This document shows positions 968-63,570 of a DNA stretch of 64,000 nt, in pieces. Both the position numbers and the translations under genes were made by a program. Origin of the DNA: Eledone cirrhosa (lineage: Eukaryota); the NCBI GenBank assembly GCA_964016885.1, contig OZ024757.1:34968001-35032000 (forward strand), in the 5' to 3' direction. The number at the start of each line of letters is the position of its first letter. Position 1 is the first letter of the stretch. Under the pieces are notes generated by a model, which was not told the DNA's origin, ran no database searches, and saw nothing but the letters and a program-made list of their open reading frames with translations.

Positions 968-1345
968 TTACTTACAGAACTTCATTCAAATATAAAATAT
1001 AAAATATATGCCAGACATAGTGAGTTGGAATCTGACTGATTAGTTGGTCATTGTCCCAGCCAACAGTTTAAATCGCCAACCAGTAGGTGACATCGACTAG
1101 GTTGGGAAAACTTGGTTAAGTAGCTCCAGTTATTGCTACGTTAGACATATTCAAGACTTATCGACACTGAATAGAAGAAAGGTAAAGTTGAACTCAGAGT
1201 AAAGAACTGGAAAAATACTGCAAAGAATTCTATCTGATGTTCTAACAATTCTACCAAGTTACCTTATGTATATATATTTATATCTAGAGATAAGAAGAAA
1301 ACTGAAAGAAAGAAAAGAAAAAAAATGAGACCTTATATGTAACCC

Positions 1346-2147
1346 ATGTTACAACTCAATATATATATATTTGAGTTGTAACATATATTCCCGCCGTTGA
1401 AATAAAAATTTTAACAGAGAAACGGCGGGAATATATGTTACAATCCAATCTACATATATTTGGGTTGTAACATATATTCCCGCCGTTGAAATAAAAATTT
1501 TAATAGAAAAACGTCGGGAATATATGTTACAACGCAATCTATATATATTTGGGTTGTAACATATATTCCCGCCGTTGAAATAAAATTTTAATAGAAAAAC
1601 GGCGGGAATATATGTTACAACCCAACCTATATATGTTTGGGTTGTAATATATATTCCCGCCGTTTTTCTGTTAAAATTTTTATTTCAAAGGCGGGAATAT
1701 ATGTTACAACCCAAATATATGTAGATTGGGTTGTAACATATATTCCCGCCGTTTTTCTATTAAAATTTTTATTTCGACGGCGGGAATATATGTTACAACC
1801 CAAATATATGTAGATTGGATTGTAACATATATTCCCGCCGTTTTTCTATTAAAATGTTTATTTCAACGGCGGGAATATATGTTACAACCCAAATATATAT
1901 AGATTGGGCTGTAACATATATTCCCGCCGTTTTTCTATTAAAATTTTTATTTCAACGGCGGGAATATATGTTACAACCCAAATATATATAGATTGGGCTG
2001 TAACATATATTCCCGCCGTTTTTCTATTAAAATTTTTATTTCAACGGCGGGAATATATGTTACAACCCAAATATATAGAGATTGGGTTGTAACATATATT
2101 CCCGCCGTGTTTCTATTAAAACTTTTATTTCAACGGCGGGAATATAT
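1346..2147. repeat. 89-bp double-hairpin (palindromic) minisatellite, 9 units with internal inversion
   Basis: Unit gttgtaacatatattcccgccgtt-gaaataaaaattttaatagaaa-aacggcgggaatatatgttacaac-ccaatctatatatatttgg. Starts at 1375, 1464, 1553, 1641. Loops are reversed after about 1630. Confidence 0.97.
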
Positions 2148-2204
2148 ACCCTGAGAGACTGAGAAATCTCTTTCAAAGAGATTTCTCAGTCTCTCAGGGT
2201 ATAT
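2144..2204. repeat. Perfect 61-bp hairpin (30-bp arms, 1-nt loop); also 26862-26922, 29539-29599, 32216-32276, 34981-35041
   Basis: atataccctgagagactgagaaatctcttt-c-aaagagatttctcagtctctcagggtatat. Confidence 0.97.
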
Positions 2205-59100: not shown

Positions 59101-62100
59101 CTTTAATCCCTCACTTGTTTCATCTCTCTCTAATCCCTCACTTGTTTCATCTCTCTCAGAATTATTAGCCACAGGGGCAGAGATGTCCATAACGTTACAT
59201 GTCAGAATTATTAGCCACAGGGGCAGAGATGTCCATAACATTACATGTCAGAATTATTAGCCACAGGGGCAGAGATGTCCATAACATTACATGACAGATT
59301 TATTAGCCACAGGGGCAGAGATGTCCATAACATTACATGACGAATTTATTAGCCACAGGGGCAGAGATGTCCATAATATTACATGACAGAATTATTAGCC
59401 ACAGGGGCAGAGATGGCCATAACATTACATGACAGAATTATTAGCCACAGGGGCAGAGATGTCCATAACATTACATGACAATTATTAGCCCCTAGGGCAG
59501 ATATGTCCATAACATTACTTGACAGACTTTCATCTGGCGCTCTCTCGTTTCATCTCTTCCTCTCTCTCGTTTCATCTCACTCTCTCTCTCTCTCGTTTCA
59601 TCTCGCACTCTCTCTCTTCCTCTCTCTCGTTTTATCTTGCTCTCTCTCTCTCTCGTTTCATCTCTATCTCCCTCGTTTCATCTGTCTCTCTCTCTGTCGT
59701 TTCATCTCCCTCTATCTCTCTCTCGCTCTCTCGTTTCATCTCTCTCTCCCTCTCGTTTCATCTCGCTCTCTCTCTCCTGTTTCATCTCGCTCTCTCTCTC
59801 TCCTGTTTCATCTCGCTCTCTACTCTCGTTTCCTCTCTCTCGTATCCTCTCTCTCGTTTCCTCTCTCTCTCGTTTCCTCTCTCTCTCGTTTCCTCTAGCT
59901 CTCACTCTCTCGTTTCATCTCGCTCTCTCTCTCTCATTTCATCTCGCTCTCTCTCTCTCGTTTCATCTCGCTCTCTCTCTCTCTCTCGTTTCATCTTTGT
60001 CTTCCTCTCTCTCGTTCCATTTCTCTCTTCCTCTCTCTCTCGTTCCATCTCTCTCTCGTTTCATCTCGCTCTCTCGTTTCATCTCTATCTCCCTCGTTTC
60101 ATCTGTCTCTCTCTCTGTCGTTTCATCTCCCTCTATCTCTCTCTCGCTCTCTCGTTTCATCTCTCCCTCCCTCTCGTTTCATCTCGCTCTCTCACTCCTG
60201 TTTCATCTCGCTCTCTCTCTCCTGTTTCATCTCGCTCTCTCTCTCCTGTTTCATCTCGCTCTCTACTCTCGTTCCATCTCTCTCTCGTTTCATCTAGCTC
60301 ACACTCTCTCGTTTCATCTCGCTCTCTCTGTCTCGTTCCATCTCGCTCTCACTCTCTCGTTTCATCTCGCTCTCTCTGTCTCTCATTTCATCTCGATCTC
60401 TCTGTCTCGTTTCATCCCGCTCTTTCTGTCTCTTTTCATCTCGCTCTCTCTCTCTCATTTCATCTCGCTCTCTCTCTCTCGTTTCATCTCTCTCTCACTC
60501 TCTCATTTCATCTCGCGCTCTCTCTCTCTCGTTTCATCTCGCGCTCTCTCTCTCTTCCTCTCTCTCGTTTCATCTCGCTCTCTCTCTCTCTCTCGTTTCA
60601 TCACGCGCTCTCTCTCTTCCTCTCTCTCGTTTCATCTCGATCTCTCTCTCTGTCGTTTCATCTCTGTCTTCCTCTCTCTCGTTCCATCTCTCTCTTCCTC
60701 TCTCTCGTTCCATCTCTCTCTTCCTCTCTCTCGTTTCATCTCTCTCTCTCGTTTCATCTCTATCTCCCTCGTTTCATCTGTCTCTCTCTCTGTCGTTTCA
60801 TCTCCCTCTATCTCTTTCTCGCTCTCTCGTTTCATCTCTCTCTCCCTCTCGTTTCATCTCGCACTCTCTCTCCTGTTTCATCTCGCTCTCTCTCTCTCCT
60901 GTTTCATCTCGCTCTCTACTCTCGTTTCCTCTCTCTCGTTTCCTCTCTCTCGTTTCCTCTCTCTCGTTTCCTCTCTCTCTCGTTTCCTCTCTCTCTCGTT
61001 TCATGTAGCTCTCACTCTCTCGTTTCATCTCGCTCTCTCTCTCTCATTTCATCTCGCTCTCTCTCTCTCATTTCATCTCGCTGTCTCTGTCTCGTTTCAT
61101 CTCGCTCTCTCTGTCTCTCATTTCATCTCGCTCTCTCTGTCTCGTTTCATCCCGCTCTCTCTGTCTCGTTTCCTATCGCTCTCTCTCTCTCATTTCATCT
61201 CACTCTCTCTCTCTCATTTCATCTCGCTCTCTCTCTCTCGTTTCATCTCGCTCTCACTCTCTCATTTCATCTCGCTCTCTCTCTCTCGTTTGATCTCGCT
61301 CTCACTCTCTCTTCCTCTCTCTCTCTTGTTTCAACACTTTAATCCCTCACTTGTTTCATCTCTCTCTAATCCCTCACTTGTTTCATCTCTCTCAGAATTA
61401 TTAGCCACAGGGGCAGAGATGTCCATAACGTTACATGTCAGAATTATTAGCCACAGGGGCAGAGATGTCCATAACATTACATGTCAGAATTATTAGCCAC
61501 AGGGGCAGAGATGTCCATAACATTACATGTCAGAATTATTAGCCACAGGGGCAGAGATGTCCATAACATTACATGATAGATTTATTAGCCACAGGGGCAG
61601 AGATGTCCATAACATTACATGACAGAATTATTAGCCACAGGGGCAGAGATGGCCATAACATTACATGACAGAATTATTAGCCACAGGGGCAGATATGTCC
61701 ATAACATTACATGACAGACTTTCATCTCGCGCTCTCTCGTTTCATCTCGCTCTCTCTCTCTTCCTCTCTCTCGTTTCATCTCACTCTCTCTCTTTCTCGT
61801 TTCATCTCGCACTCTCTCTCTTCCTCTCTCTCGTTTTATCTTGCTCTCTCTCTCTCTCGTTTCATCTCTGTCTTCCTCTCTCTCGTTCCATCTCTCTCTT
61901 CCTCTCTCTCGTTTCATCTCTCTCTCTCGTTTCAACTCTATCTCCCTCGTTTCATCTGTCTCTCTCTCTGTCGTTTCATCTCCCTCTATCTCTCTCTCGC
62001 TCTCTCGTTTCATCTCTCTCTCCCTCTCGTTTCATCTCGCTCTCACTCTCTCATTTCATCTCGCTCTCTCTCTCTCTAGTTTGATCTCGCTCTCACTCTC

Positions 62101-63570
62101 TTTTCCTCTCTCTCTCTTGTTTCAACACTCTAATCCCTCACTTGTTTCATCTCTCTCAGAATTATTAGCCACAGGGGCAGAGATGTCCATAACTTTACAT
62201 GTCAGAATTATTAGCCACAGGGGCAGAGATGTCCATAACATTACATGACAGTTTTATTAGCCACAGGGGCAGAGATGTCCATAACATTACATGACGAATT
62301 TATTAGCCACAGGGGCAGAGATGTCCATAACATTACATGACAGAATTATTAGCCACAGGGGCAGAGATGTCCATAACATTACATGACATAATTATTAGCC
62401 ACAGGGGCAGAGATGTCCATAACATTACATGACAGAATTATTAGCCACAGGGGCAGATATGTCCATAACATTACATGACAATTATTAGCCCCAAGGGCAG
62501 ATATGTCCATAACATTACATGACAGACTTACATCTCACGCTCTCTCTCTCTCTCGTTTCATCTCGCGCTCTCTCTCTTCCTCTCTCTCGTTTCATCTCGC
62601 TCTCTCTCTCTCTCTTGTTTCATCTCGCGCTCTCTCTCTTCTTCTCTCTCGTTTCATCTCGCTCTCTCTGTCTCTCGTTTCAACTTTGTCTTCCTCTCTC
62701 TCGTTCCATCTCTCTCTTCCTCTCTCTCTCGTTCCATCTCTCTCTCGTTTCATCTAGCTCTCACTCTCTCGTTTCATCTCGCTCTCTCTGTCTCGTTCCA
62801 TCTCGCTCTCTCTCTCTCGTTTCATCTCTATCTCCCACGTTTCATCTGTCTCTCTCTCTGTCATTTCATCTCCCTCTATCTCTCTCTCGCTCTCCCGTTT
62901 CATCTCTACCTCCCTCTCGTTTCATCTCGCTCTCTCACTCCTGTTTCATCTCGCTCTCTCTCTCCTGTTTAATCTCGCTCTCTACTCTCGTTCCATCTCT
63001 CTCTCGTTTCATCTAGCTCTCACTCTCTCGTTTCATCTCGCTCTCTCTGTCTCTCATTTCATCTCGATCTCTCTGTCTCGTTTCATCCCGCTCTCTCTCT
63101 CTCGTTTCATCTCACTCTCACTCTCTCATTTCATCTCGCTCTCTCTCTCTCGTTTCATCTCGCGCTCTCTCTCTTCCTCTCTCTCGTTTCATCTCGCTCT
63201 CTCTCTCTCGTTTCATCACGCGTTCTCTCTCTTCCTCTCTCTCGTTTCATCTCTCTCTCTCGTTTCATCTCTATCTCCCTCGTTTCATCTGTCTCTCTCT
63301 CTGTCGTTTCATCTCCCTCTATCTCTCTCTCGCTCTCTCGTTTCATCTCTCTCTCCCTCTCGTTTCAACTCGCTCTCTCTCTCCTGTTTCATCTCGCTCT
63401 CTCTCTCTCCTGTTTCATCTCGCTCTCTACTCTCGTTTCCTCTCTCTCGTTTCCTCTCTCTCGTTTCCTCTCTCTCTCGTTTCCTCTCTCTCTCGTTTCA
63501 TTTAGCTCTCACTCTCTCGTTTCATCTCGCTCTCTCTCTCTCATTTCATCTCGCTCTCTCTCTCTCGTTT
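56171..63570 (+). repeat. Right arm of the composite satellite: five 46-bp blocks alternating with five CT-rich tracts
   Basis: CT tracts at about 56580-57469, 57788-59157, 59525-61393, 61717-62157, 62525-63570. Confidence 0.95.

Follow-up and report, generated by a model that had tools for sequence, protein, structure and literature searches.

Probable capture of pre-existing satellites during break repair in a macrosatellite carrying a dead Helitron in Eledone cirrhosa

In yeast, DNA breaks can give rise to hairpin-primed fold-back inverted duplications of 5-34 bp, and distant insertions can consist of two inverted pieces of one locus with end overlaps of 0-4 bp (Yu et al., PMC11724301). 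In oyster, mixed and differently oriented arrays lie among truncated, tandemised Helitron parts (PMC12628747, PMC8268682), and in the human telomere-to-telomere assembly inversion breakpoints are a common feature of satellite arrays, with more than 200 in HSat3B5 and beta-satellite arrays (10.1101/2021.07.12.452052). For cephalopods, only one telomere-localisation study was noted (PMC5646656). Here, we computationally analysed a window of 64,000 nucleotides from Eledone cirrhosa (assembly GCA_964016885.1, contig OZ024757.1, positions 34,968,001 to 35,032,000 of the forward strand), in which a tandem macrosatellite unit carrying a dead Helitron (unit B) is joined to an 89-bp satellite and to a composite of 46-bp and GA repeats (46/GA). 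An initial annotation had proposed, as a candidate process, that such arrays are generated where a dead Helitron macrosatellite is repeatedly broken within the Helitron 5' kilobase. Our results point to a different origin: satellites that already existed were probably captured by microhomology-mediated templated insertion in about three repair events, with the dead Helitron as a passenger.

The locus shares with the yeast system (PMC11724301) a short hairpin-primed inverted duplication at a break, overlaps of 0-5 bp and inserts made of two inverted pieces; however, the yeast inserts measure tens to ~150 bp and come mostly from mutants, whereas those seen here are satellites of 0.8, 2.7 and 18.6 kb that were re-amplified. 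As in fold-back inverted duplications with a spacer (Hermetz et al., PMC3907307), opposed copies of one segment, with ends 70 bp apart, face each other across a spacer, but here this spacer is a foreign satellite of 18.6 kb, the halves are not mirror copies and the flanks are not sister-identical. Truncated, tandemised Helitron parts together with several array types in varied orientation are also found in Helitron graveyards; unlike the Helitron-associated satellites of the same reports (PMC12628747, PMC8268682), the arrays here are not bounded by Helitron terminal boxes and are attached to the decayed coding remnant of an autonomous-type element within a segmental unit of 10 kb. Compared with the human satellites (10.1101/2021.07.12.452052), they are much smaller, have one strand switch each and belong to a non-human animal. 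We regard the locus as a further case of known processes, mostly ordinary scars in a region rich in repeats. The literature searched, outside which most subscription papers and supplements lie, contained no description of either the satellites or the locus. On this reading, it offers the study of satellite evolution a useful natural case, clean and from the germline, in which satellites are captured through microhomology repair and then re-amplified. It does not show Helitrons making satellites, and it would matter much more if the 46/GA repeat were a chromosome-end cap or if Rep nicked these internal sites.

The window consists of animal repeat DNA, whose structure was resolved by self-alignment (self-BLAST blocks; Table 1). 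Joints are given in the coordinates of the unit B copy B1 unless a window position is stated. The four junctions described in the initial annotation lie where it had placed them (11749, 12254, 12567 and 12637), and all are closed by short microhomology or a snap-back, with overlaps of 2-6 bp. They are not independent as had been supposed: a single array ends at both 12567 and 12637, two positions on either side of one TA-rich microsatellite, and the 89-mer insertion has a further end, at 14080, that had been omitted. The overlap is GA at 11749 (window 20980), AG at 12637 (window 44921), ATG at 14080 and 4-5 bp, as read by eye, at the inverted joint 12567 (window 63568). At 12254 (window 2148-2168), a 20-bp inverted copy is primed by a natural 6-bp stem (CTCTTT-C-AAAGAG), and this snap-back is joined to the 89-mer array via an ATAT overlap. 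The insert ends therefore have overlaps of 2, 2, 3, 4 and 4-5 bp, and the strand switch in the 46/GA array (56163-56164) has a TC overlap. An overlap of at least 2 bp was present in all seven satellite or snap-back joints against a chance of 0.16 each, so the microhomology is genuine. Satellites are not alone in this, because satellite-free deletions show the same overlaps (2 bp in two of the three scored). No motif common to the breakpoints was seen when the joint sequences were compared.

Arrays made at the breaks should have monomers no more diverged than the flanks. Copies of unit B differ pairwise by 1.0-1.8% and those of the tandem unit A, which contains the 89-bp arrays, by 0.16-0.86%, with 0.16-0.43% among the unit A copies at 26066-34984. 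In contrast, the 89-mer monomers are 4.0-6.8% apart (6/6 half-arrays), the 46-mer monomers 4.2-15.9% apart (13/13 blocks) and the GA parts of the composite units 2.1-10.3% apart. As the satellites are more diverged than their flanks, they likely pre-date the breaks. The 55-bp array within unit B provides an internal control for a young array: its monomers are 0-0.9% apart, making it the youngest array in the window, its copy number across three B copies is 17, 4 and 11, and it has no strand switch. These comparisons, together with the arm structure described below, fit satellites that were captured in a pre-diversified state and later underwent unequal exchange, rather than being produced by one rolling burst or a simple mirror fold-back.

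The giant 46/GA array (18.6 kb, 44922-63567) is built from long blocks that were copied in order. Every composite unit is one ordered series of a 27-mer, a fixed order of GA variants and a 46-mer block, and the same series occurs in the insertion in copy B2, where it merges gradually with older GA variants and with DNA that is not satellite. In all 11 composite units the nearest relative lies in the same arm (permutation 1 of 462), which means that the two arms are not mirror copies. Units at mirror positions share only 0.005-0.069 of rare words versus 0.13 within arms, the arms near the centre show 7 mismatches in 194 aligned letters and 130 in 1493 over 2 kb, and the closest units are neighbours and alternates (L4/L6, 2.1% over 1.7 kb). 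A Helitron-driven generation of the satellites at the breaks does not fit this pattern, in which long blocks were copied in order and the units group with others of their arm and with their neighbours; the same long blocks led us to reject a telomerase-like synthesis of the composite. The purine strand is the plus strand in the left arm and the minus strand in the right, running away from unit B in both, and GC and AT skew flip at 56 kb. The right flank has 5 differences per ~344 letters from the left flank versus 2 from B2/B3. At 56150-56180, both arms stop in the phase of the 46-mer at which each composite unit also finishes, and the centre is small and hairpin-like, with a loop of 4-5 nt.

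The B2 insertion consists, in order, of a 17-nt inverted filler, 11.5 copies of the 46-mer, an ordered GA block, two copies of the 27-mer, older GA variants and ~930 bp of non-satellite flank. Its template, with this native-looking flank, is 4-8% from the giant-array units; being that far from all 11 of them, the insertion was rejected as the direct template of the giant array. It was likewise rejected as a Helitron, since, although on the minus strand it starts with A before and TC after the joint, it lacks a CTRR or hairpin end. The single internal strand switch that had been ascribed to both satellites is present in the 89-mer arrays and the giant array; the third 46/GA copy (20998-22290) has none, nor do the 55-bp and 40-bp arrays. 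As a separate observation, positions 13151-13166 of unit B, in all B and A copies, match the GA-satellite core exactly over 16 bp (reached by 7 of 300 shuffles) and adjoin what we take to be a hAT-MITE-like end, and the filler at the 11749 joint (20979-20997) matches this site in inverted orientation, 15 nt exactly. Such an element may be the ancestor of the GA satellite, and local templating may account for the filler.

Each 89-mer array has one strand switch, which lies inside a stem (~1637-1664) and can be produced by any exchange between the array's own inverted repeats of 28 bp. Mirrored variants between the left and right arms differ among unit A copies, a pattern which suggests ongoing arm-to-arm exchange or conversion. 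The strict alternation of the stem and its reverse complement with two loops is the product expected from an 89-nt dumbbell circle, and the stem carries what we assume to be an E2F-like motif, GGCGGGAA. In a comparison of the 89-mer and the 46-mer with masked unit B, only low-complexity matches of 11-14 nt were among those listed.

We infer the following course of events. A tandem 10-12 kb unit with an already dead Helitron was likely broken about three times, the breaks being repaired by templated insertion of satellites that likely pre-existed elsewhere; unequal exchange then likely raised the copy number of the repair products. In the first event, a break at 11748 would have been filled with a 2.7-kb genomic piece carrying the 27/GA/46 template in its native flank, together with the 17-nt filler, probably copied from B 13147-13165. 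In the second event, 12254-14080 would have been duplicated and the join closed by an 89-mer array that had been captured, plus a 20-bp fold-back, with the product later amplified as unit A. In the third, breakage beside the TA-rich tract 12569-12615 may have led to the joining of two oppositely oriented B copies via a diversified, two-armed 46/GA array; fragility is possible for AT/TA repeats (PMC12972899). The strand switch of the 89-mer would stem from exchange between its own 28-bp inverted repeats, and that of the 46/GA array from a separate 2-bp end-join or fold-back.

Several points weigh against this reading. At 18.6 kb, the giant array exceeds the yeast inserts in length about 100-fold, and exact motifs of the 89-mer and 46-mer gave 0 loci in 4/4 scans (metagenome_contigs, viral_contigs), so that no donor was found there. 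The flanks may be similar because B copies were homogenised, and the mismatch of the GA parts may be inflated by alignments rich in gaps; because of both, a satellite older than its joint is unproven. A clear hairpin was found at one of eight breakpoints, and none of the eight falls in the most stable 15% of windows; hairpin strength ranges from the 18th to the 95th percentile, so the breakpoints are not singled out. The TA-rich tract 12569-12615 is short and one of 12 such tracts in B1. Three joints and the 46/GA centre are each single-copy within the window, and the purine-strand polarity shared by both arms is left unexplained by repair. Finally, the breakpoints form a modest hot zone of 2.3 kb, with eight of the 14 structural breakpoints, which includes the start of the RepHel frame.

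This hot zone is what remains of the tight cluster that had been put forward. On a unit of 9.9-13.7 kb and with a window of 890 bp, the four original joints gave p=0.001-0.003. With 14080 included, four of five joints within 890 bp gave p=0.005-0.013, or 0.029 when weighted by copy number (8-9 copies of 12254-14080 versus ~3 elsewhere), and when the giant array ends were counted once, p rose to 0.05-0.09, or 0.12 weighted. For 12-14 uniformly placed breakpoints, four would fall within 890 bp with p=0.27-0.72; five observed ones do. The 0.9-kb cluster therefore went from p 0.003 to ~0.12 once corrected, while the broader zone at 11.75-14.08 kb held up (breakpoints between copies, manual count from the self-alignment). 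Between 7.5 and 11.7 kb there are no breakpoints apart from array copy-number changes. Two thirds of the zone lie outside the RepHel frame.

The Helitron remnant itself was confirmed on the minus strand by tblastn. It aligns to amino acids 148-512, 633-867 and 1367-1498 of P0001, a protein with Helitron_like_N and PIF1 domains (Pfam), at 39-78% identity, and retains a Pif1 2B domain (E=5e-14). The HUH region and the helicase core are deleted, and stops and frameshifts are present; an HUH motif was matched nowhere in six frames of the window, and P0001 amino acids 513-632 are absent from the remnant. Homology to 120 RepHel proteins is confined to 10157-12497, and the nearest intact RepHel among those found has a mean identity of 60%. 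The label of a Helitron 5' kilobase did not survive: RepHel homology ends at 12497, so 12567 and 12637 lie 70-140 bp outside, and no 5' terminus was found in the window, where a scan for termini gave five weak hairpin matches, none with CTAG. Cutting by Helraiser is set by the terminal 40 bp (PMC4778049). Read on the Helitron strand, joint 14080 has A before and TG after it, and read-depth peaks mark other repeat fragments in 12640-14080. Taken together, the Helitron is likely a passenger in the macrosatellite. At its C-terminus, the remnant continues into an unrelated broken frame (9780-10150 and 19065-19430, both minus strand) with a PHD-finger-like stretch (Pfam E=0.03, below the cut-off), possibly a piece of a retroelement.

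A Helitron could have had a more active part in two ways. One is that Rep, supplied in trans, nicks this kilobase and iterative templated synthesis builds satellites de novo with a fold-back. Rep acting in trans is conceivable, and the satellite joints are nominally clustered (p 0.005-0.03, five joints), the 89-mer has the form of a rolling circle on an 89-nt dumbbell, and Helitron-linked satellites are well documented (PMC12628747, PMC8268682); we nevertheless judge this origin highly improbable, with the HUH region gone and unmatched in six frames, breakpoints inside or upstream of the coding region instead of at termini and sharing no motif, diverged monomers in hierarchically related rather than star-like units, and, among the matches listed, nothing in masked unit B longer than low-complexity stretches of 11-14 nt from which the 89- or 46-mer could derive. 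The youngest array, the 55-mer, moreover lacks an inversion and lies outside the zone. Of the process proposed at first, microhomology, snap-back, template switching and re-amplification fit the locus, but the Helitron-driven generation of satellites does not, given a Rep without HUH motif, breakpoints off the termini and satellites more diverged than their flanks. The other way is that a truncated non-autonomous Helitron gave rise to units A and B as tandem arrays by a rolling circle, with satellites as passengers or insertion targets, a model that expects many 5' ends and one 3' end. Unit A does repeat only the region upstream of RepHel plus its N-terminal part, as in plant arrays (Xiong 2016, cited in PMC12628747), and both contexts at 14080 have A before T on the Helitron strand. 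The putative start, however, reads TG and not TC, none of the five weak matches makes a convincing hairpin-CTRR end, 12640-14080 contains other repeat fragments, and the unit ends in a snap-back that rolling-circle exit does not predict; this model therefore seems unlikely to us.

The polarity of the giant array invites another explanation. At head-to-head telomere fusion sites, a strand switch lies at the centre and the purine-rich strand runs towards it from either side, and the same holds here, although the giant array lacks TTAGGG and has complex composite units of 0.8-3 kb. The 46/GA composite might accordingly be a terminal repeat, subtelomeric or substituting for telomeres, in which case two B copies would have been broken near the TA-rich tract, each end capped by recombinational addition of the repeat, and the capped ends later fused head to head. 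Such a fusion agrees with a purine strand leading away from B in both arms, with arms that diversified separately and end at the 46-mer phase closing each unit, and with a right flank further from the left flank (5 differences in ~344) than from other copies (2). We still hold it to be unlikely, because TTAGGG and CCCTAA have 0 occurrences in the 18.6-kb array, a long conserved variant order speaks for block copying of DNA and not for telomerase, one copy is interstitial with a native-looking flank, polarity in two of two arms is weak evidence, and two independent breaks 70 bp apart require a fragile site. The specific form in which the composite is this lineage's non-TTAGGG terminal repeat, added to broken chromosome ends by recombinational block copying, and 44.9-63.6 kb a fossil head-to-head fusion of two macrosatellite ends capped independently, appears quite doubtful. 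Lastly, the palindrome-like block could be an assembly or read artefact (a fold-back chimera), as the window contains its centre and three of the joints just once each. That is very improbable: the arms carry arm-specific variants and the mismatches given above (7/194 near the centre, 130/1493 over 2 kb), and unit B was recovered in the contigs of 3/3 contig runs; a read fold-back was rejected since the arms are not mirror copies. Capture during break repair hence remains the reading that we prefer.

Table 1 Features of the 64,000-nucleotide window (window positions unless marked B)
Feature	Position	Strand	Details
Unit B, copy B1	7483..17400		~10-12 kb tandem macrosatellite unit; self-BLAST blocks
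Unit B, further copies and part-copies	start ~2168, 17401, 35005, 40012		self-BLAST blocks
Inverted B copy	63568..64000	-	= B1 12165-12567; reaches window end
89-bp array	1346..2147; also 26066-26865 and 34097-34984		monomer = 28-bp stem X, loop, X reverse complement, loop
Snap-back palindrome	2148..2200		20-bp inverted copy of B 12254 onward; 6-bp stem primer
Tandem unit A	26066..34984	+	2677-bp period; B 12254-14080 + 89-bp array + snap-back
89-bp arrays within unit A	start 26066, 28743, 31420, 34097
Insertion in B2, 2.7 kb	20981..23694	-	TGA duplicated
Giant array, left arm	44922..56164	+	46-mer block, six 27-mer/GA/46-mer units; joins B 12637
Giant array, right arm	56165..63567	-	five units; joins inverted B 12567
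Dead Helitron RepHel remnant	10157..12497	-	tblastn, Pfam
RepHel remnant, further copies	19388-24424, 42404-44722		first split by B2 insertion; tblastn
Very high-copy short repeat	11852..12000; second copy 22966-23090		within Helitron remnant
TA-rich microsatellite	12569..12615		between 12567 and 12637 breakpoints
Satellite-free deletion joint	35814..35815	+	B 13031-13296; 2-bp overlap
55-bp array in unit B	8669..9586; other copies 18593-18809, 41238-41825	+
0.5-kb repeat	4589..7452, also 14627-15833		direct and inverted copies; self-alignment

Unit B was also found in contigs from sequencing runs under three species labels (3/3 contig runs), which shows that it is not peculiar to this assembly. 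The listed contig pieces of runs X1, X4 and X6 match it mostly with 0-3% differing letters, at depths, which are not copy numbers, of 665-1340 (X1, 7/8 pieces), 4-12 (X4) and 3-8 (X6); the ~100-fold deeper contigs in organism A hint at many copies there and at a lineage-specific amplification of unit B. In run X4, from another species label and another study, one contig stops precisely at 14080 and the one that follows starts 30 letters before that point, at lower depth, a pattern that a branch at the unit A joint would give and which suggests that this joint is shared with a related species. The snap-back joint was not seen in this run, where a 568-letter contig spans 12254 unbroken. The read comparison listed 24 of 1216 loose ends and 24 of 46223 pieces, too few for a test of breakpoint uniformity. 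Among the listed loose ends and the 15 of 138 joints listed, nearly all lie at the high-copy short repeat within the Helitron remnant, which shows a depth peak and loose ends in 4/4 runs. We presume this repeat to be SINE-like (short interspersed element), with a putative resemblance to an octopus SINE.

No Rfam match was obtained for window positions 1-26000. The 0.5-kb repeat forms a second cluster of rearrangements, with a homology-mediated deletion in B1, further inversions and no Helitron link, and these inversions and deletions fall outside the breakpoint cluster that had been claimed.

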